A stretch of 32,000 nt of DNA, taken from the NCBI GenBank assembly GCA_005191425.1, contig SUPR01000001.1:40380-72379 (forward strand). The letters are read 5' to 3'. Under the pieces are notes generated by a model. It ran no database searches, had not been told where the DNA came from, and saw nothing but the letters and a program-made list of their open reading frames with translations. The position numbers were made by a program, and so were the translations under genes. Of the stretch, positions 9,652-21,854 are shown one piece after another. This stretch comes from Candidatus Helarchaeota ASGARD archaeon Hel_GB_B (GTDB lineage Archaea > Asgardarchaeota > Lokiarchaeia > Helarchaeales > HEL-GB-B). Each line of letters begins with the position of its first letter. The stretch's first letter is position 1.

Positions 9652-10140
9652 ATGAGTATAAATAATAAAATAAAATATGACTTTAAGAATAAATCACTAG
9701 CTGATATCCTGCTTGACGAGCTAAAGTATCTAAGGTCAAGGACAGGTATTAGAGTAAGCATCATTTTATCTCAAAGTGGTAAAATACTGTCAATTCATGA
9801 GGATGCAGCATATGTGCCCGACCAATTAAGATATGGAGCAAGAAATCAACATATTGATAAAGAATATTTATCAAAATGGATTGTTTCTACTTCTAGGACT
9901 ATAGAATTCGTTTCAGAAAAAATGTTTACCGATGGAATAAAATTTATTATTTTAGAAGGAAATGATAAGAAAGAAGCAATAATAATGAATTATAAAGACC
10001 CAGATCCAGATATTTCCTTTATTTTAATGGGTTTATTAACAAAAGCTGGATCAATTGGACTTGGATATCAAGAAATAAAAGAGAGTTCTGAAAGAATAAA
10101 AGATATTTTAATAAGCTATAAAAATTATCAGAATTTATAA
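9652..10140 (+). CDS. Roadblock/LC7 (MglB/LAMTOR-like) domain protein
   Basis: Helix, then GIRVSIILSQSGKIL; central helix; IKFIILEG...AII; FILMGL....SIGL...EIK...ERI..IL: roadblock topology with an insertion. Confidence 0.7.
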   Translation: MSINNKIKYDFKNKSLADILLDELKYLRSRTGIRVSIILSQSGKILSIHEDAAYVPDQLRYGARNQHIDKEYLSKWIVSTSRTIEFVSEKMFTDGIKFIILEGNDKKEAIIMNYKDPDPDISFILMGLLTKAGSIGLGYQEIKESSERIKDILISYKNYQNL

Positions 10141-10320: not shown

Positions 10321-10713
10321 TTGTCAGAATTTGCTAGATTTATGGAATCTATTTCATCAGAAGCAACTGAAACAAAGATAAATGAACTTTCTGATGTCCT
10401 TAATAAAGTACTTCAGATAATAACAAAAGCACTTGATGATTTAACTGTAAAGATGGTCGGACTTGAAGAAGAAATATATTTTTTAGAGCAAAAGATTGAA
10501 AATATCCAGAGGAGGTCAAAGAATATTCAAGCATCACTGTCCAGACAAGAGGTAAGCCAGAAGGTAGTGACTAATAAAGAAACTAAACCACCAACTACCC
10601 AAACACAGATTAATCAACCTCAAAAACAAACCACAGAAAATGTAAAACCTGTACCCCTTAGATCTGCAGTAAATACTGAACTTAAAGATCTATTTAAAAA
10701 ATTGAAAAAATAA
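10321..10713 (+). CDS. Coiled-coil / low-complexity linker / C-terminal amphipathic helix protein (paralog 1)
   Basis: Heptads over aa ~18-75, T/Q/P-rich linker, ends RSAVNTELKDLFKKLKK; TTG start. Confidence 0.75.
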   Translation: MSEFARFMESISSEATETKINELSDVLNKVLQIITKALDDLTVKMVGLEEEIYFLEQKIENIQRRSKNIQASLSRQEVSQKVVTNKETKPPTTQTQINQPQKQTTENVKPVPLRSAVNTELKDLFKKLKK

Positions 10714-11156
10714 TGATGTTCAAAATGAGTGATAATTTTTTTAATATTTTAATGAAATCATCTACGGCTTCAATTGATGAAAAAATAAAGAAACTAAGCA
10801 TGGTATTAGACAAAATTATGGAAGTTGCAATCAAGTCAATAAGTGGAATTGAAAATCAAGTTCAAACTTTTGACGCAATATTAGCAGAAATTAGAAATAA
10901 AATTGAAGGACTAGAAGCTAATTTGACCGTTTTGGAACAGAAACAAGAAGCAATGGCAAAATCAAGTATTGGTAGCAGTACAACATTAGAAACGCCAATG
11001 CCCTCCCAATCTTCTCGTCCAGTTGAAACAAAACCTATAAATAAACCATTGGCACCTCCTGTATCAGCATCAACTCCAAAACCAACTCGGCCAATTAACC
11101 CCAGAGCTGAATTACAATCAGAATTAAAAGCACTTTTTTCAAAAATGAAGCGTTAA
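10713..11156 (+). CDS. Coiled-coil / Pro-Ser-Thr linker / C-terminal amphipathic helix protein (paralog 2)
   Basis: Shares KI..LS.VL.K...K.......KIE with paralog 1; ends RAELQSELKALFSKMKR; TAATG stop/start overlap. Confidence 0.75.
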   Translation: MMFKMSDNFFNILMKSSTASIDEKIKKLSMVLDKIMEVAIKSISGIENQVQTFDAILAEIRNKIEGLEANLTVLEQKQEAMAKSSIGSSTTLETPMPSQSSRPVETKPINKPLAPPVSASTPKPTRPINPRAELQSELKALFSKMKR

Positions 11157-11167
11157 AAAAAGAAGTT

Positions 11168-12079
11168 TTATTTATTAAAAAAATTTAATATTTCAGTTGC
11201 ACCACTTTTTAATGCAAGCCCTGCTAATTGAGTAGAGGAATTAGGGCCAATTTGAGTTATTATTAAAAATCCGCTTTTTTTGTTAGGAATTTTTACTGGC
11301 ATTAAAATTAATTTGCCTCGTTCACCATCAATTGTTGAGAAGGTCTTACCAATATTAAAAGCATCGCCCACAGAATTTGCAGACAATGCCACTGTTGATG
11401 CAATTAATGAACCAATATTGACATCAATTTCATGTGGAAAAGTCGAGAATAAAACACGCCCCTCAGTGGTAGAAATTAATGCAGCTATTGCTCCAGCTTT
11501 TGTTTTTATAGTTTCCATGATTTTATTTAGAGCTTTCATTGTTTCTTCATCATATAAAGGGACATTTTCTTTAGGTCCAATTAAAAATTTGCACATTTTA
11601 TCTCCTTTGGCAATACATTCAGTTTCATTTATCTCAACTTCAGAATCGAATAATACACTAGCCATACCTTTTAATATTCCTTGAATACCAAAACATGATG
11701 CTATTCCTTCTTCGTAAGCTTCAGGGGAGTTTTGAATCTCAATATATATTTTTTTATTATCTTCATCTATATTTATATTCCCCAATGTTGCACCCCAGCC
11801 TCCTCGTTCTAAGCTTCTTAAGATAAACCTAAACGCGGTATTTTTATCTGCTTTTTTCTTATCTATAACAAGTTCCATAAATCTTTTACCAATATCTTCT
11901 CCAATTTTAATATAAATTGGCCGAAGACCCTCTTTTAAAAATTTATTTGCAGTGAGATACATCTGTCTAAAATGTTCAATATGAAGTATAATTATTCTGA
12001 AATTGAAGCCTTTAATTTCTCCTTTAAAAATAGAAAAATCTTTGAAAGTAAAATTTTTAGTCTCTTCTAACAAGCCCAT
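11168..12079 (-). CDS. V4R (TRAPPC3/Bet3-related) domain fused to C-terminal roadblock domain
   Basis: GWG, NSPEA, SC..I.GIL.G......V...ETECIAKGD..CKF (V4R); then AALISTTEGRVL...I.GERGKLILMP...LII...P......GL (roadblock). Confidence 0.8.
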   Translation of the reverse strand: MGLLEETKNFTFKDFSIFKGEIKGFNFRIIILHIEHFRQMYLTANKFLKEGLRPIYIKIGEDIGKRFMELVIDKKKADKNTAFRFILRSLERGGWGATLGNINIDEDNKKIYIEIQNSPEAYEEGIASCFGIQGILKGMASVLFDSEVEINETECIAKGDKMCKFLIGPKENVPLYDEETMKALNKIMETIKTKAGAIAALISTTEGRVLFSTFPHEIDVNIGSLIASTVALSANSVGDAFNIGKTFSTIDGERGKLILMPVKIPNKKSGFLIITQIGPNSSTQLAGLALKSGATEILNFFNK

Positions 12080-12142: not shown

Positions 12143-15100
12143 TTAAACTCTTGTAATTTTGGTAGATGAAGCCATCCAAATGGGTCCAATTATTTCGTGA
12201 ATTAACGCTACCAAAGTTTCTTGTTGAGATACTAATGCAGTTAATTGTGTTAGGTCGTATTTTTCAGAATATGGTGCAATTAATACTTCTTCACCGTCTC
12301 TACCAACTGCAAATAGGTTCATCTCAGGTCTTTGCCTTATTTGTACATTTCCTAATTCTAGCAACTCTCTAACCTGGTCTTTTGCTTCGTTCAAGATACG
12401 AGATGCAACAATTATTCTTATTCTTCGACTAGCGGATTTAATAGTTTCTAGAGGCAGGTCACTAAAATCAGGAGCTACAATAGATACAGTTGATTTTGTT
12501 CTCATAAGAATGTCCCGGATATATTCTTTTATTGCCTCAACACCTACTAATGGCCAAGTAAGTTCGCCGGATTTCGCTAGTATATTAGTAGTTTCCTGCC
12601 ATACTGCTCTTAGAAGTTGACTTACTTTTAAGGTTTCACCTTCAGCTTCTCTGAATGTAAATGCCGCATCTTTATTAGTGTTTGTAAGTCGCTCTGTTAA
12701 TATAGAATCGGTTTCATCTAATTTTGCAGCTAATTTTTCATTTAATGAATTTGCGTTTGATTCATAGTCAGTTTGGTGTTGGCTAGCTAATTGTAGTAAA
12801 TCAGTTTCTAGTTTTGCAGCATCTGCTTGGAATCCTGCGGCATGGTTGGAAATTGTTTCTTTACATTCCTCATAAGTTTTGGTAGTCAATTCTTTAATTT
12901 GTGCTAAATATTTATTATCAATTTCGTTTATATCGTTTTTTATTTGTGAAAATCCTTCATTCATAGTATTAGATATTTGCTCTTGGACATCATTTGCCAT
13001 TTTATTAACTCGTTCGTTATCATTGTTGACAAAATCTTTAATAGTATTTTTCATTTGATTTAATGCTTCGTGGCCACGGTTTTTAACATCATCTACTCGT
13101 TTAATTTCGGTCTGTACTATATTTGCGACATCATCTTTTTTCTCGTCTATCGATTTATTCATATTAGCTGTTATTTCATCTAATTCTCCTAACTTATTAT
13201 CATCAATTTCTTGAAGATTTTTCTTATGCTCCTGGATTATATTTGCAAGCAATGAAATAGATTTATTACGAATTTCATGTGATTGTGATTCAACATTACC
13301 TACTCTTAAGTCTAATGCTTTATAAAATTCATCACGCATTGAATCAAGTTCGTTTTGATATTCTTTGATTCTATCATCTAGAGTATCAGAAAGAACTTGC
13401 TCCAATTTACTTGTATCTTCTTGTAAAAGTTTATTTTGGCCGGAAATCTTGGATAAAAATTCGTCTTTCAATTTATTTAGTAAGTCGCTGTATCTTTTTA
13501 TGACATCATCTGATTTACTAACTATCGAGTCCTTCATTTTGTAAAAATCTAATTCTATTGCTTCTACTTGAGAATTAATTATTTCTTGAGACTGGTCACC
13601 ATATTTAGAAGCATTATCCTTGAACCAATTTAAGTTATTATTATTATATTTGTCAAAAACAGCAGATACATTTTCCTTTTTAGTATTTATCGATGAAATT
13701 TCGGAACTGATAATATCAGCAAGATTTTCAGTAGTATCGTTTGACCATTTGTCTAAAGATTCATTTACCTTATCTTGATAGTCTTTAATATTTACTTCTA
13801 ACTCTTTAACTAAATTTTTTGATGTTTCATTTATGGTATTAATTAATTGTTCATTAGCCCCGCGTTCTTCCTTAATTTTTTCATTTAATTTTCTAATAGC
13901 ATTATCAATAATTTCCTTAATTTCAGGTCTGTCTTTACTATATTCTTTTAATTCATTTTCCAGTTCTTTTTCCCAGTCACGGAGATTATGAATTGTTTTT
14001 GTTATTTCCCCTGATGAAACATTTTTAATTGAGTCGACCTTGGTCTGAATTTCGTCATGTAAAGTTTTCGATAAAGATTTTATCTTATTTTTTTCTTCAG
14101 ATTTCAGATTTTTAATTGAATTATTTGCTTTTGATTTTAAATCATCCAAATTTTTGTTTAAATTAGAAATACTTGCATCTAATTCTTGATTGAATTCACT
14201 CCTTGCGGAATTTATTTCATCTGTTAATTGAGCTAAACGCTCGTCTAAATTCGAAGTTAATGTTTTTTCCAAATCAGTTGACCCGGCTTGAAGCCTTTTA
14301 ATTTGACTTGTAAATTTGTCAAGAAATTCCTGTTGTATATCACCAACTAATTGCTTGAACCTTGAAATTAAATCATTTGTAAAATTTGCTACATCATTTG
14401 TAAATTGATAGAATTCGGTATCTCGTTTAGTAATTTCATTATTAAACAATTTTTCAGCAGTTTCACGAAAATTGCTGGCTCTATTTTTAAACCATTCCAT
14501 ATGATTATTTTGTGAATTTTGAATTTCAGACCTTAATTCCTTATCTTTTTCCCAAGTAGCTTCAATTTCCTTTTTTATCATTTCTAAGAATTCGTCTGAT
14601 AAATTTTTATGCCATTCATCATAGGCAGTGTAATTTTGATTGCGATTACTATTAATAATATCATTTACTCCTTTGACATATTCGACCATTATTCGATCAG
14701 TGAATTCATCAAATACGCCATCAATGCGAGTATTAAGTAGATTTAATCCTTCTACATTTTCGGCAGAGACTTTATCGAGAATTTCATTGCCGTAATTGTC
14801 CAAGACATTATCAATATTATTATTTAAATTATTTAATTCATTTTTATGTTCATCGGCTGTAGTATCATGTATATTTTTAGTTTTTTGCATTAATTCATTA
14901 TATCTATTTTCCAGGTCATTAGCCAAAGTGTCTTCATATTCATGAATTAATTTATTGTGGTCATCATTACGCTGATTAAAATTGTTAGTTATCTCTTCTT
15001 TTCTCGATTCCACATCAGAATTTAATTTTATTACTTGATTTGTAATTAAATTAGAAATTCCATCTCTAGCATTAATTGTATCTTTGGCAAATTGTTCTAA

Positions 15101-15514
15101 TTGAGTATTTATAGCCTCTGCTACTTGATCTTTAAGAGTTATGACCTCTTGCTTTAAGTCATTAATATGTTTATTAATGTTAGAATCGAAATCCTCTCGT
15201 TGTTTGATAGTTTTTTCTCTATATTGATCCAAAAATTGAGTAAAGGCAGAATAAGGGACGACTGGCATATATCTATTTATATCTTTAGCTGCTGAACCTA
15301 TTGCAACAGCAAGGTTATTATCTAAAAATTTTTGTATTGTATTTCTCGCTTCTTCCATTGAGATATTTGCCAATGCCGCTAAAGATGATTCAGTTATATA
15401 TCCTTTTGCATATAATGCGACAAAGGCTCTTGCTTCAGCTTCTGTTAATGTAACACCTCGTTCTTTAAAAGTATCTATAATTATTTGAAACATATTTTGG
15501 TTTTGTACACTCAT
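12143..15514 (-). CDS. TrmB-family architecture (N-terminal wHTH, C-terminal PLD-like effector domain) with ~880-aa helical insert
   Basis: N-terminus LTEAEARAFVAL...GYIT..SLA....IS......I.KFLD..L...RY.PV.P; C-terminus W.L.G.EAI..YI.D.L.R.KSTV.IVAP...RD.EEVLIAP; the middle is Pro-poor and helical. Confidence 0.8.
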   Translation of the reverse strand: MSVQNQNMFQIIIDTFKERGVTLTEAEARAFVALYAKGYITESSLAALANISMEEARNTIQKFLDNNLAVAIGSAAKDINRYMPVVPYSAFTQFLDQYREKTIKQREDFDSNINKHINDLKQEVITLKDQVAEAINTQLEQFAKDTINARDGISNLITNQVIKLNSDVESRKEEITNNFNQRNDDHNKLIHEYEDTLANDLENRYNELMQKTKNIHDTTADEHKNELNNLNNNIDNVLDNYGNEILDKVSAENVEGLNLLNTRIDGVFDEFTDRIMVEYVKGVNDIINSNRNQNYTAYDEWHKNLSDEFLEMIKKEIEATWEKDKELRSEIQNSQNNHMEWFKNRASNFRETAEKLFNNEITKRDTEFYQFTNDVANFTNDLISRFKQLVGDIQQEFLDKFTSQIKRLQAGSTDLEKTLTSNLDERLAQLTDEINSARSEFNQELDASISNLNKNLDDLKSKANNSIKNLKSEEKNKIKSLSKTLHDEIQTKVDSIKNVSSGEITKTIHNLRDWEKELENELKEYSKDRPEIKEIIDNAIRKLNEKIKEERGANEQLINTINETSKNLVKELEVNIKDYQDKVNESLDKWSNDTTENLADIISSEISSINTKKENVSAVFDKYNNNNLNWFKDNASKYGDQSQEIINSQVEAIELDFYKMKDSIVSKSDDVIKRYSDLLNKLKDEFLSKISGQNKLLQEDTSKLEQVLSDTLDDRIKEYQNELDSMRDEFYKALDLRVGNVESQSHEIRNKSISLLANIIQEHKKNLQEIDDNKLGELDEITANMNKSIDEKKDDVANIVQTEIKRVDDVKNRGHEALNQMKNTIKDFVNNDNERVNKMANDVQEQISNTMNEGFSQIKNDINEIDNKYLAQIKELTTKTYEECKETISNHAAGFQADAAKLETDLLQLASQHQTDYESNANSLNEKLAAKLDETDSILTERLTNTNKDAAFTFREAEGETLKVSQLLRAVWQETTNILAKSGELTWPLVGVEAIKEYIRDILMRTKSTVSIVAPDFSDLPLETIKSASRRIRIIVASRILNEAKDQVRELLELGNVQIRQRPEMNLFAVGRDGEEVLIAPYSEKYDLTQLTALVSQQETLVALIHEIIGPIWMASSTKITRV

Positions 15515-15523
15515 TTTATATTT

Positions 15524-15528
15524 CCTCC
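15524..15528 (-). promoter_or_regulatory. Shine-Dalgarno GGAGG between the ATPase-TPR stop and the TrmB-like start
   Basis: Minus strand reads TAAGGAGGAAATATAAAATG, supporting co-transcription. Confidence 0.7.
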
Positions 15529-17412
15529 TTATGAACTACCTCCTTCTATGGCTACTTTTGTTCTATTTAACTTTTCTACAAAATCAGCCAACCCTAAATT
15601 TTGGAATTTTTGAATGGAATCCTCCAAAATGTCCTTGGCTTTATCTACTTGCCCTTGAATTGCATATACATTTGATAAGTTAGTATAAAATTGCCATGCA
15701 TAAAAATATTCATTATTTGAAAAGAATGTCTTTGCTGCTTTTGTTAGTACATTTATTACTTCATTTGTGGCATTTATTTCTTCGAAATACTTTTTAGCTT
15801 GAGTATAGTTTGCTCTGGCTAATGGATATGCCTTGTCCTTAATGCAATCTTCGGCTTTTTCGACAAATAAATTAGCCAATTTATTTATTAATTCTTTCAC
15901 TTTTTCGGGTTCTCCTAAGCTTCTATTTACATCAATTGCATTAATGAGGACATCCCTGCCATAATCTAATAACCCTTTTTCGAGGAACTTTTCTGTAAAA
16001 CTTTCCAAAATATTTGCGGCTTTTTCTTTTTCATTAACTTTTACGAGACTATCCCCTGCAAGTAATATAAACTTAAAAACTTCATTATAATATCCATAAT
16101 TATAATAATTCATAGCTATATCATAATAACCATTTGCGATATGCTCAACTGCAGATACCAGTCCCGCTGTTAGAGAATCAGATCTTAGACGTTCTAATTC
16201 TTCGAATTGAAAATCTTCCAATAATCTTCCATTTTCAGCCAAATTCATTGCAACTTTAATTAGACCTCTTGCTTGCGCATCTACTGCAATATCACCCAAA
16301 CTACTTCGTAAATAAATCCAAAAACTGTCTAATGTAATATAATAAACACTATCTTCTTTACTCAAATATTTTCCAATCATTTTTTCAAGTATTGGTTTGA
16401 TATCTTCACTTTTTGCGCCAATCGAACGAGCTATTATATCAATATCTGCAAAATTTGCATTTTCCATTGCAAATGACTGTAATATTTTTCTTTCGTCCTC
16501 AGTTAATTCTTTAAGTTCTCGTCCAAAACCTTCTTTAACTCCGCCTTCAGCTTTAAACCATACATCTTTACCTAGTTCTCTTGTATCGCCTCTATTTTCA
16601 TACAACCATCCGCCATTATAAACTAAATAAAGAGGAATTCCACCACTATGTCTTAATAAATTCTCTTTTATCTCTTCACTAAATTTAATTCCTGCTGCAT
16701 CTGCTCTTTTATCAAGTAATTCTATTGCATCAGCATTATTTAAAGTTGGTAAACCTATTTCGTGAAAATCCTCTAATACATAACGAACTTTTGGATAATA
16801 CTTTTCCCAAACAGACATCAAAAAGAGAACAGGGAGGTTTGGATTTTTTACATCCGTTTTTATAGCGTCTACTATTGCTTTTAATACATCAAATGCATTG
16901 TCATGATTTAATATTATAAATCTTTCAACAAGATTAGAAACAATTAGAATACCTTTTTTATTGAATTTATTACCTTGAATATTTTTAATAATTTTAGGTA
17001 ATTTTTTAACAATTTTTTTCAAAAAAGAATCAATATACTTACTCATATCAGGGATTTCATAGCTGCTTTTTAAAAGCGGAGCTTTTTTACCTGGTTTTGT
17101 AATAGGTTTCTTTTTGTCCACGGGTTTCGTTATTTCATCTAATTCATTGCTTATTACATCGAAATAACCTTCAATATTTATCAATGGTACATCATATCTA
17201 ATTACCAGAAAACCATTTGATGAAGCTATGGACTCGATTTGTTTTAAAAAACTTCTTCTACCAATTCCTTCGCGTCCATGTAATATTAAGCCATGTGAAA
17301 TATTTTCTCGGTCAGCTATTTTTTGCAAAATTCCTGAAAATTGATCTATTTCTCTTTTTCTTCCCACAAAGAATTTCGCTGGGCATGTTTCTAATTTAAA
17401 TGGGTCCGTCAT
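15529..17412 (-). CDS. STAND-like AAA ATPase (degenerate Walker A/B) - winged helix - TPR/SNAP-like repeat protein
   Basis: FVGRKREI, LILHGREGIGRRSFL, I.LPTL...DA.ELL..RA, SGGIPLYL, L..DER.IL; C-terminal helical repeats with A..YY/AKKYF patterns. Confidence 0.8.
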   Translation of the reverse strand: MTDPFKLETCPAKFFVGRKREIDQFSGILQKIADRENISHGLILHGREGIGRRSFLKQIESIASSNGFLVIRYDVPLINIEGYFDVISNELDEITKPVDKKKPITKPGKKAPLLKSSYEIPDMSKYIDSFLKKIVKKLPKIIKNIQGNKFNKKGILIVSNLVERFIILNHDNAFDVLKAIVDAIKTDVKNPNLPVLFLMSVWEKYYPKVRYVLEDFHEIGLPTLNNADAIELLDKRADAAGIKFSEEIKENLLRHSGGIPLYLVYNGGWLYENRGDTRELGKDVWFKAEGGVKEGFGRELKELTEDERKILQSFAMENANFADIDIIARSIGAKSEDIKPILEKMIGKYLSKEDSVYYITLDSFWIYLRSSLGDIAVDAQARGLIKVAMNLAENGRLLEDFQFEELERLRSDSLTAGLVSAVEHIANGYYDIAMNYYNYGYYNEVFKFILLAGDSLVKVNEKEKAANILESFTEKFLEKGLLDYGRDVLINAIDVNRSLGEPEKVKELINKLANLFVEKAEDCIKDKAYPLARANYTQAKKYFEEINATNEVINVLTKAAKTFFSNNEYFYAWQFYTNLSNVYAIQGQVDKAKDILEDSIQKFQNLGLADFVEKLNRTKVAIEGGSS

Positions 17413-20353: not shown

Positions 20354-20857
20354 ATGCAAGTCTATATTACAACACTTGGGCGATCTGAATGGGCAGTTAT
20401 CAATAGTTATTATGCAGTTGTTAAAAATAAGAGATATTACCCAGATTTAATTTATATCATAACTGAAGATTTGTTCCAAGATAGAATTCACAAGATAATA
20501 GATGGTCTAAATATCATTTCAAATGAGTTTGGATTTAATCCAGAATATAAATTGACAATTGTAAAAGAATCCGAGTTTTCTGATGCAAAGAATAAAATCG
20601 ATATAATCGCAAAAGATTTAGAAAATTCTAATAATATGATTGCCGTAGATATTACATCTGGTCGAAAAGTATTAGTAATTAATATTCTCTTATTAATATT
20701 CTATTCAAAAATAAAAGTTCAACATATTTTTTATTTAGCAATAAAGACAATTAAAGGGGTTAATAAACCATATGAAATGATACCAATTCAAATTCAATCA
20801 TTAAGAGATTTTATCCAAGAAATTAATGAGGTGAAAAATAGACCAAATGGCACATGA
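20354..20857 (+). CDS. Stand-alone CARF-domain protein
   Basis: CARF motif I YITTLGRS.WAV and motif II IAVDITSGRK, followed by IFYL; no fused effector domain. Confidence 0.75.
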   Translation: MQVYITTLGRSEWAVINSYYAVVKNKRYYPDLIYIITEDLFQDRIHKIIDGLNIISNEFGFNPEYKLTIVKESEFSDAKNKIDIIAKDLENSNNMIAVDITSGRKVLVINILLLIFYSKIKVQHIFYLAIKTIKGVNKPYEMIPIQIQSLRDFIQEINEVKNRPNGT

Positions 20858-21854
20858 AACAATAATTAATCCCCCAGAATTACAAATTTTATTGAACAAA
20901 TTTGACGACTATTCGATATCATTTCCTGCTTTTTCTAAAGATACAATTTTAACTGCAACACCATTTAATGATTGTTATAAAATAAAAGTAAATGATAATT
21001 ATTTTGATTCCGATCGAGATGGTCTTAACATTTTTAACGATATTTATTATTCAGAAATACCAAATAATCAAGATTTTCTAGAATGTCTCTTGTCAAGTAA
21101 TTGTATTACCTATCCTAACGTGGGAGATTTTGAGTATATAAGAAAATCATATAAAAATATCCATAAAAAGGTATATTTTGCTGTGGATACAAATATTCTC
21201 TATCATAGGTTTATCTCTTTCTCTAAATTAAAAGAAGAGAAAATCGTATTAGCACCTACCATTAAAGATGAAATAGAGTCATCAATAAATTATAAATATA
21301 ATAGGGAGGAAATTAATGAAATTAAAAAAATTGTAAGATATAACAAAAATTTATTTGATGAATTTAGAAATAGACGCATAAAAAAGTCAAGAAAGGCAGC
21401 ATATCTTGCATTAAATGAGCTAAAACTTTTAAATATCCTTAATATAGACAGCGTAAAAATAGAGCAAGAAAATTATGAACAAAATGATTTAAAAATTGTT
21501 AGAGAGTTAAAAGCTTTTGAAAATGACTCAGGAGCGTTGGTAGTATTATTAACAGCAGATAGAGCAATGGTAGATTTCTGCAGAATAGAGTCCTTAGATT
21601 ATTTTAATTTTGATTATCCAAACACATTTAATATAAATACATGTTCGGCACAACAATTTAGGTCTTTAATTTTTAATTTAGCCGTTGTTTTTGGATTTAT
21701 AAAATTAAATTCGACAATAATATTCGGCGAATTTTCAGGAAAACACGAGTTAGACAATTTGAAAATTAGATTTTTAAACAAAAACTTGTATAATAAATTC
21801 GAAAAAGATTTAAGCATCTGCCGGAAGTTAGAAAAACTAAATTTTGATTTTTAA
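20847..21854 (+). CDS. PIN-domain ribonuclease with N- and C-terminal extensions
   Basis: YFAVDTNIL, LAPTIKDEI, NDLKIV, VVLLTAD acidic tetrad; overlaps the CARF gene by 11 bp; GAGGTGA SD at 20828-20834. Confidence 0.8.
   Translation: MAHETIINPPELQILLNKFDDYSISFPAFSKDTILTATPFNDCYKIKVNDNYFDSDRDGLNIFNDIYYSEIPNNQDFLECLLSSNCITYPNVGDFEYIRKSYKNIHKKVYFAVDTNILYHRFISFSKLKEEKIVLAPTIKDEIESSINYKYNREEINEIKKIVRYNKNLFDEFRNRRIKKSRKAAYLALNELKLLNILNIDSVKIEQENYEQNDLKIVRELKAFENDSGALVVLLTADRAMVDFCRIESLDYFNFDYPNTFNINTCSAQQFRSLIFNLAVVFGFIKLNSTIIFGEFSGKHELDNLKIRFLNKNLYNKFEKDLSICRKLEKLNFDF

Follow-up and report, generated by a model that had tools for sequence, protein, structure and literature searches.

The window analysed here is a stretch of 32,000 nucleotides (nt) from the Asgard archaeon Candidatus Helarchaeota Hel_GB_B (assembly GCA_005191425.1, contig SUPR01000001.1, positions 40,380 to 72,379 of the forward strand), and our subject is a pair of adjacent open reading frames (ORFs) on its plus strand, ORF1 (10321..10713) and ORF2 (10713..11156). 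On balance, we read the two as diverged tandem copies of an undescribed, Asgard-specific, oligomeric coiled-coil adaptor that would present tethered docking helices. A preliminary description, made from the sequence alone, had seen in them the layout of the WAVE and WASH nucleation-promoting factors, with coiled coils like those of BRK1 and CCDC53, a proline-rich linker and a WH2-like C-terminal helix. We found a likeness to actin-assembly factors in layout only, with no detectable kinship to BRK1, CCDC53, WAVE/WASH or WH2.

Tandem paralogues of an Asgard-wide family

Both co-directional ORFs were present as described. ORF1, the A-type paralogue, encodes 130 amino acids (aa) from a TTG start with a GGAG 9 nt upstream, and ORF2, the B-type paralogue, encodes 147 aa as listed. 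BLASTP aligned them end to end (E = 1e-9, 29% identity) and, judged from their sequences, they are true paralogues. The gap-free alignment claimed for a stretch of about 45 aa was recovered by MAFFT, with 11/45 positions identical, but not by BLASTP, which introduced a 14-residue gap. Translational coupling, also claimed, likewise stood in part: the ORF1 stop overlaps an ATG (TAATG at 10711-10715), but the homologues of ORF2 all start MS(E/D)(D/N)F, a start that in ORF2 falls on the ATG at 10725, 11 nt past the ORF1 stop. A gene-called relative (L003) has the identical 11-nt gap. Because the homologues start MSEDF, the true start of ORF2 is probably ATG 10725, giving 143 aa. Co-transcription of the two genes is likely, while their coupling through the stop/start overlap is not certain. 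The closest relatives of both proteins are hypothetical proteins from metagenome-assembled genomes (MAGs) of Helarchaeota, Lokiarchaeota and Promethearchaeota, with ORF1 orthologues in Helarchaeota MAGs being 45-62% identical. The window itself is AT-rich (GC 22-36%).

An AlphaFold2 (AF2) model of ORF2, run with a 16-sequence alignment and numbered on the 147-aa version, bore out the proposed order of coiled coil, flexible arm and C-terminal helix. It shows a short helix (residues 3-15), a long helix (21-86) whose predicted local distance difference test (pLDDT) values are 90-98, a segment mostly below pLDDT 50 and hence disordered (88-123), and a single 17-residue C-terminal helix (130-146, pLDDT ~84). 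On the plus strand, the short and long helices, with their coiled coil, occupy 10725..10970, the disordered arm, rich in P, S and T, 10971..11099, and the C-terminal 'ELK helix' PRAELQSELKALFSKMKR 11100..11153. The last of these matched a tail hidden Markov model (HMM) at E = 1.6e-13 in a search of all ORFs of the genome. In ORF1, the alignments (A1 and A2, the latter holding 37 family members that span the phylum) and analogy with the ORF2 model place the conserved N-terminal helix and coiled coil at aa 1-64 (10321..10512, plus strand). They are followed by a linker at aa 65-112 (10513..10656, plus strand), unalignable across the family, and by the ELK helix LRSAVNTELKDLFKKLKK (10657..10710, plus strand; tail HMM E = 2.6e-12 in the same search). 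The linkers had been described as P/S/T-rich, which held for ORF2 (P 20%, S 18%, T 12%) and failed for ORF1, whose linker is Q/T/K-rich (Q 17%, T 15%, K 12%, P 10%). The longest proline run in either linker is 2, so neither contains polyproline.

A family profile built from both paralogues and their relatives gave matches in 267/400 Asgard genomes, including 75 of the 90 high-quality ones, and most matching genomes hold one full-length member of 120-180 aa. An exhaustive search of 1.8 billion representatives returned 376 matches; the full-length matches among them are small proteins, and the remainder are long coiled-coil proteins matched in pieces. All named relatives are annotated 'hypothetical protein' (Helarchaeota, Lokiarchaeota, Promethearchaeota and Odinarchaeum, including OdinLCB4_005915 of Odinarchaeum yellowstonii). 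The ESM Atlas yielded archaeal hypothetical clusters only, a scan of NCBIfam noise only, and we found no published description of the family in the literature. We conclude that the family is real, widespread, Asgard-specific and apparently undescribed. ORF1 and ORF2 match its HMM within their own genome at E = 1.2e-34 and 4e-37, and in A2 they align over their full length with proteins of Lokiarchaeia, Odinarchaeum and further families. They also have its characteristic features: a conserved N-terminal helix and a coiled coil, a variable arm, an ELK helix at the end and a length of 120-180 aa.

Across A2, the N-terminal 45 residues are recognisably conserved and the arm is unalignable. The C-terminus follows the consensus P-x-(S/N)-x-R-x-A-(I/L/V)-x-x-E-L-K-x-L-F-x-K-(R/M)-K, which lies at a fixed position at the extreme end of the chain. 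E-L-K is invariant and L/F nearly so in the 37 members, and the common C-terminal motif noticed in the pair is therefore not only real but stronger than first claimed. The proline content of the arm ranges from 0% (the third paralogue of this genome) to 41% in Lokiarchaeia, where members have polyproline runs of 4-8 about 15 residues upstream of the tail. Given this range, polyproline is a lineage trait and not a family trait.

Besides the tandem pair, this genome encodes two more family members, one on contig C124 and a divergent one on contig C47, making four in all. The third (G000:C124:26016-26501, minus strand) has a proline-free arm and lies just upstream of, and co-directional with, a gene for a ParA/MinD-type ATPase; the fourth (G000:C47:5262-5744, minus strand) has the tail SIRAALIQEMKEFF, in which EMK replaces ELK. 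The tandem pair also occurs in the same genus and in one sister family (f1, f2; genomes G126, G124 and G123). A tree recovered an A-type clade (support 100/100) and a B-type clade (99/97), and its deeper branching gave no resolution of the timing of the duplication. Since the tandem pair is kept in two families (f1, f2), with each type well conserved, it is reasonable to infer that ORF1 and ORF2 form a hetero-oligomer.

Several relatives depart from the usual form. Two proteins of 406-409 aa (L065:7989-9209 in G127, and P0100) have N-terminal HEAT repeats joined to a complete family module with the tail ...TRAALNEELKKVLLKRK. In a taxonomic family without a clear member, a 269-aa protein (L111:1168-1977, G002) has the motif PINTRRAMLDELKGIL in its interior, then a proline-rich segment and, at its end, a second helix IMELNREFLEEYRKLRK, and may be a divergent or tandem-motif relative. 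An orthologue in G137 (L040:8001-8456) ends FSKRRTDDDDDD, with an acidic run directly after the basic cluster (TDDDDDD), and several other family members have shorter acidic ends. Another orthologue, at L039:7992-8393, belongs to the cultured P. syntrophicum.

The ELK helix and its candidate partners

On the reading that we favour, the N-terminal helix and coiled coil would oligomerise, with ORF1 and ORF2 probably forming a hetero-oligomer here and the protein a homo-oligomer in the many genomes with a single match. Each chain would then extend a disordered arm of 40-70 residues, free in composition, ending in the 17-residue helix, whose invariant E-L-K would serve as a docking motif for a groove on a partner conserved throughout the phylum; oligomerisation would make this docking multivalent. 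That E-L-K is invariant at the level of residue identity points to a groove on a partner protein that is itself highly conserved. On the Eisenberg scale, and without reference helices, the tail has a hydrophobic moment of 0.07-0.42, a mean hydrophobicity of -0.49 to +0.06 and a net charge of +2 to +4. The invariant acidic residue and the low hydrophobic moment are easier to reconcile with a groove on a protein than with a lipid surface.

We searched the whole genome for the tail with a regular expression and found it at the C-terminus only in family members and in two Arf/Rag-like GTPases. The latter lie on contigs C45 and C117 of G000 (L120:5771-6856, minus strand, and L119:5128-6309, plus strand) and match Pfam Arf and Gtr1_RagA. 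They have an N-terminal extension of ~100 aa, and a short coiled coil, a linker and an ELK-x-IF tail replace the C-terminal Roadblock domain. Other Asgard relatives of these GTPases (P0177, P0186, P0189-P0191) have a proline tract and then NVR-x-x-(V/I)I-x-ELK-x-(L/M)F at the end. Asgard Arf/Rag-like GTPases thus resemble the family in having a short coil or proline tract followed by an ELK-x-(L/M/I)F helix at the very end, and differ in that the domain bearing this tail is a GTPase and not the N-terminal domain of the family. A tail HMM built from the small proteins alone matched P0177 moderately (E = 1.3e-3) and P0186 weakly. A tail common to the family and the GTPases is accordingly a lead rather than a result, and we found no description of these GTPase tails in the Asgard Arf preprint. 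In L. ossiferum, an Arf GTPase co-precipitates with lokiactin (bioRxiv 10.1101/2025.11.30.690169). We found no sign of a link between that GTPase and these tails: 0/20 Arf-like regions read in G137 (probably L. ossiferum) end in an ELK tail.

The charge of the tail raises the alternative that it is a basic amphipathic helix anchoring the protein, and the look-alike GTPases, to anionic membranes in the manner of the C-terminal helix of MinD. Its net charge of +2 to +4 and its hydrophobic residues at i, i+4, i+7 and i+8 are consistent with this, as are the look-alike tails on small GTPases, which need membrane anchors, the VTT/DedA membrane protein directly upstream of the family gene in three families, and the ParA/MinD-type ATPase beside the third paralogue. 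The hydrophobic moment is nevertheless low, and lowest in Lokiarchaeia, and the mean hydrophobicity lies on the negative side. The invariant Glu flanks the hydrophobic face, invariance of E-L-K at the level of identity is unusual for lipid binding, and many members have an acidic end after the basic cluster, TDDDDDD in L040 being an example. We regard membrane anchoring as quite unlikely.

A tethered helix of this kind might also act as a MIM1-like element that recruits the MIT domain of Vps4, which would make the family an ESCRT accessory. The MIM1 consensus is (D/E)xxLxxRLxxL(K/R), with Leu at positions 4, 8 and 11, Arg at 7 and Lys/Arg at 12. Like the MIM1 region of ESCRT-III, the family joins a helical core through a flexible linker to a terminal amphipathic helix with hydrophobic spacing of 4 and then 3, which fits L4/L8/L11, and the two ESCRT-III proteins of this genome end ...LQEQIDELKKSLEE and ...IAELEKEIKRLKEEK after a flexible linker, with D/E-L-K in both tails. 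The charges are inverted relative to MIM1, however, with the invariant Glu at the place of Arg7 and Phe at that of Lys/Arg12. Similarity to Snf7 is also missing, Snf7 not being among the 25 Pfam families most matched by the 37 members, and none of the 40 loci examined has an ESCRT gene next to the family gene. Taken together, these differences make a role in Vps4 recruitment very unlikely. A PIP-box, for which ORF2 offers Q-x-x-L-x-x-L-F, was rejected: other members have M, N or I in place of the Gln, an aromatic residue hardly ever occurs at position 7, and 'x' positions coincide with the invariant E and K.

Comparison with actin-assembly factors and the ribosomal stalk

We compared the pair and the family with the proteins named in the preliminary description. 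The window proteins scored 16.0 and 14.1 bits against Pfam CCDC53/WASHC3 (PF10152), below its gathering cut-off of 24.6 (E = 0.017 and 0.064). These matches cover model positions 10-97 and 20-90 of 147, which take in the coil and low-complexity arm but leave out the C-terminal block. CCDC53 was one of ~200 coiled-coil families with sub-threshold matches. Among the 37 members, Baculo_PEP_C matched 21, DUF1664 20, NPV_P10 16, FlaC 14 and CCDC53 11 (best E = 8.6e-5), and the matches to the first four are to generic short coiled coils. The best PDB matches of the whole-family profile were again generic, mostly trimeric coiled coils (the phage gp26 needle, GCN4 adaptor fusions, reovirus sigma-1 and autotransporter stalks), with no BRK1, WAVE, WASH or CCDC53 chain among the best 60. 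Foldseek with the ORF2 model returned nothing below E = 0.3 from the PDB or AlphaFold Swiss-Prot, and no homology to the N-terminal WHD/WAHD of WAVE/WASH appeared in Pfam, in the PDB profile search or in Foldseek.

The C-terminal helix fared no better as a WH2 domain. PF02205 did not match the window proteins at E up to 1, was absent from the 14 families listed for ORF2 and from the 25 families most matched by the 37 members (E up to 10), and did not match ten isolated tails of 29-32 aa (E up to 10), in searches where the HMMER filters remove most matches above E ~0.1. A tail-only profile gave six chance matches in the PDB (best E = 0.16); up to E = 10, none was to a WH2, a MIM or any other peptide. 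At the level of pattern, the WH2 helix, an Arg followed by hydrophobic-hydrophobic-x-x-hydrophobic, is matched by R-x-A-(I/L/V)-(M/L/N/Q)-x-E-L-K. After ELK, the tail stays helical through L-F-x-K-(R/M)-K, where it stops, without an LKKT/V-type motif, a conserved Leu-basic-basic-Thr/Val or a helix-ending Gly. ORF1 and ORF2 end 0-1 residue past the basic cluster, which leaves no room for a central or acidic region, and an acidic end with Trp is absent from all family members.

No profile match thus went beyond generic coiled coils, and the claims of homology to BRK1, CCDC53 and WAVE/WASH, and of a WH2 domain, fail. That the pair are true homologues or precursors of the BRK1 and CCDC53 coils joined to WH2, and so an ancestral nucleation-promoting factor of WAVE/WASH type, draws on the same order of parts, on the weak CCDC53 matches of both window proteins and 11/37 members, and on the mostly trimeric look-alikes in the PDB, BRK1 being trimeric when free. 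Against these points, CCDC53 stayed below its cut-off for both window proteins and four generic coiled-coil families matched more members; no BRK1, WAVE or WASH chain was among the best 60 PDB matches, and Foldseek gave no result. The lack of a WH2 profile match, of a central or acidic region and of Trp adds to this, and we hold such an origin to be highly improbable.

A part in actin regulation by functional analogy, as distinct from membership of WH2, WAVE or WASH, is another matter. The ELK helix might bind the hydrophobic cleft of lokiactin, with the coil clustering several helices and polyproline recruiting profilin-actin in some lineages, in analogy to proline-rich/WH2 or VASP modules. 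The WH2 helix has the pattern R-x-A-L-L-x-x-I-R/K, and the first half of the tail follows R-x-A-(I/L)-(M/L)-x-x-(L/I)-(K/R) before its basic cluster. The polyproline runs of 4-8 in Lokiarchaeia, ~15 residues upstream of the tail, point the same way. Because of this resemblance and of the upstream polyproline, actin remains a live candidate for the partner. Strong conservation, which any partner of the helix has to show, is found in lokiactin: across most of the phylum it shares 72-81% identity with the actin of this genome. Genes for lokiactin (L001:1498-2631, minus strand) and for gelsolins are present here. The only actin regulators that published work lists for Asgard archaea are profilins and gelsolins (bioRxiv 10.1101/2025.11.30.690169), which leaves a gap.

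Several points stand against this. PF02205 never matches the full proteins or isolated tails, WH2-bearing PDB chains are absent from the matches of the tail profile (E up to 10), and the LKKT/V element and helix-ending Gly are missing. Proline is not a family trait, making up 0-10% of the arm in ORF1 and the third paralogue, and the profilins of Loki and Odin were reported not to bind polyproline (PMC8410842). The family and tail HMMs found no gelsolin fusion in 59 gelsolin loci (30 + 16 + 13) from ~50 genomes, the two gelsolin genes of this genome have no ELK tail (by eye and by genome-wide tail search), and several actin-bearing families lack the protein. Weighing both sides, we see actin regulation by analogy as possible, if rather unlikely. 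A stronger form of the idea, which we judge unlikely, is that the family is the missing Asgard actin-assembly factor, the ELK helices of the oligomer binding lokiactin, either as monomers or at the ends of filaments, and polyproline supplying profilin-actin in some lineages. If so, it would work like eukaryotic proline-rich/WH2 or VASP-GAB modules and might be their evolutionary forerunner, wired in this order, in its two-subunit form, to Roadblock/small-GTPase signalling.

Set beside known systems, and judged from sequence and model alone, the family resembles the modules of Ena/VASP and WASP/WAVE in its oligomerising helix, its flexible and often proline-rich arm and its R-x-A-hydrophobic-hydrophobic-x-x-hydrophobic-basic helix with further basic residues; their polyproline runs are matched in Lokiarchaeial members. 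It differs from them in that profile and fold searches gave no match and that LKKT/V, an EVH1 domain and the central and acidic regions are all missing. The family has its coil at the N-terminus and VASP at the C-terminus, and proline is optional (0-41%; 10% and 20% in ORF1 and ORF2), unlike in Ena/VASP and WASP/WAVE. In the archaeal and eukaryotic ribosomal stalk proteins aP1 and P1-P2, a helical oligomerisation domain is linked by a flexible hinge to a hydrophobic helix at the C-terminus, which is conserved and, displayed in several copies, recruits a conserved partner. The family shares this design principle of a small helical oligomeriser, a hinge and an end helix, with no relation in sequence. 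The stalk tail is acidic (…LF-G/D end) and the family tail basic, and the family, unlike the stalk proteins, is Asgard-specific and without a link to ribosomal genes.

Gene neighbourhood of the pair and its relatives

The pair lies between genes for two Roadblock-fold proteins. The upstream neighbour (9652..10140, plus strand, 162 aa) had no match in Pfam or NCBIfam, and its AF2 model (predicted template-modelling score 0.72) identified it through Foldseek as a protein of the MglB/Roadblock fold, the best match being MglB (E = 4.5e-7) and the next ones Asgard Roadblocks and LAMTOR subunits. A homologue of it adjoins the family gene in L003, and in L037 lies just downstream on the opposite strand. 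The convergent downstream neighbour (11168..12079, minus strand, 303 aa) is a fusion of V4R (Pfam E = 1.3e-11) and Roadblock/LC7 (Robl_LC7, 7.8e-6), also kept near the family gene in L003 and L037. Beyond it, a gene at 12143-17412 on the minus strand encodes a 1123-aa protein with TrmB-like ends and a very long helical rod, adjoined by a gene for a 627-aa protein with a sub-threshold SNAP/TPR-like match. This set of neighbours, including the 1123-aa and 627-aa proteins, is kept in rearranged form in relatives of the same order (L003, L037 and L038).

Roadblock-fold genes on both sides point to a small-GTPase/Roadblock setting, so that in the order of the window the adaptor could act in polarity or trafficking. 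Several findings weigh against the docking-adaptor reading or narrow it. The neighbourhood is not conserved across the phylum, that is, beyond the level of order or class. Roadblock neighbours of the family gene are confined to the order of the window, and the GTPase/Roadblock setting may for that reason be local. Several actin-bearing Asgard families have no clear member (f9 0/3, f13 2/31, f16 1/22). Lastly, the tails of the two GTPases of this genome match the regular expression only, the tail HMM scoring them at E = 55 and 79.

The family is small, occurs in two thirds of the Asgard genomes searched, and appears to combine an oligomeriser, a tether and an invariant docking helix. Small, widespread and undescribed, it is therefore a cheap and well-defined target, for which an 18-residue peptide would be enough for pull-downs. 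The partner of the helix, be it actin, a GTPase/Roadblock platform, Vps4 or a membrane, would be an added component for the cell biology of the lineage of the eukaryotic ancestor. The tandem pair is a natural experiment that may show the transition from a homo-oligomer to a hetero-oligomer.

No actin, profilin, gelsolin or ESCRT gene was found beside the family gene in the 40 loci. In Lokiarchaeia, its neighbours are a gene for a 206-aa protein without known identity and an Elf1-like zinc-ribbon gene. In Odinarchaeum yellowstonii LCB_4 (L051:6014-8504), L052, L067 and L055, it lies directly downstream of a gene for a VTT/DedA membrane protein, which in turn follows a divergent UbiA prenyltransferase gene; these loci come from three non-Loki families, one Odin-like and two others. 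Two Lokiarchaeial loci (L042:11415-15984 and L041) hold four conserved proteins of 313-422 aa without a Pfam match. The block adjoins an Elf1-like gene with an extension of ~130 aa; two taxonomic families have it close to the family gene, in arrangements that differ. Elsewhere in the window (20354-21854, plus strand), a PIN-domain gene and a gene for a CRISPR-associated, Rossmann-like domain of the Csa3 type share an overlap of 11 nt.

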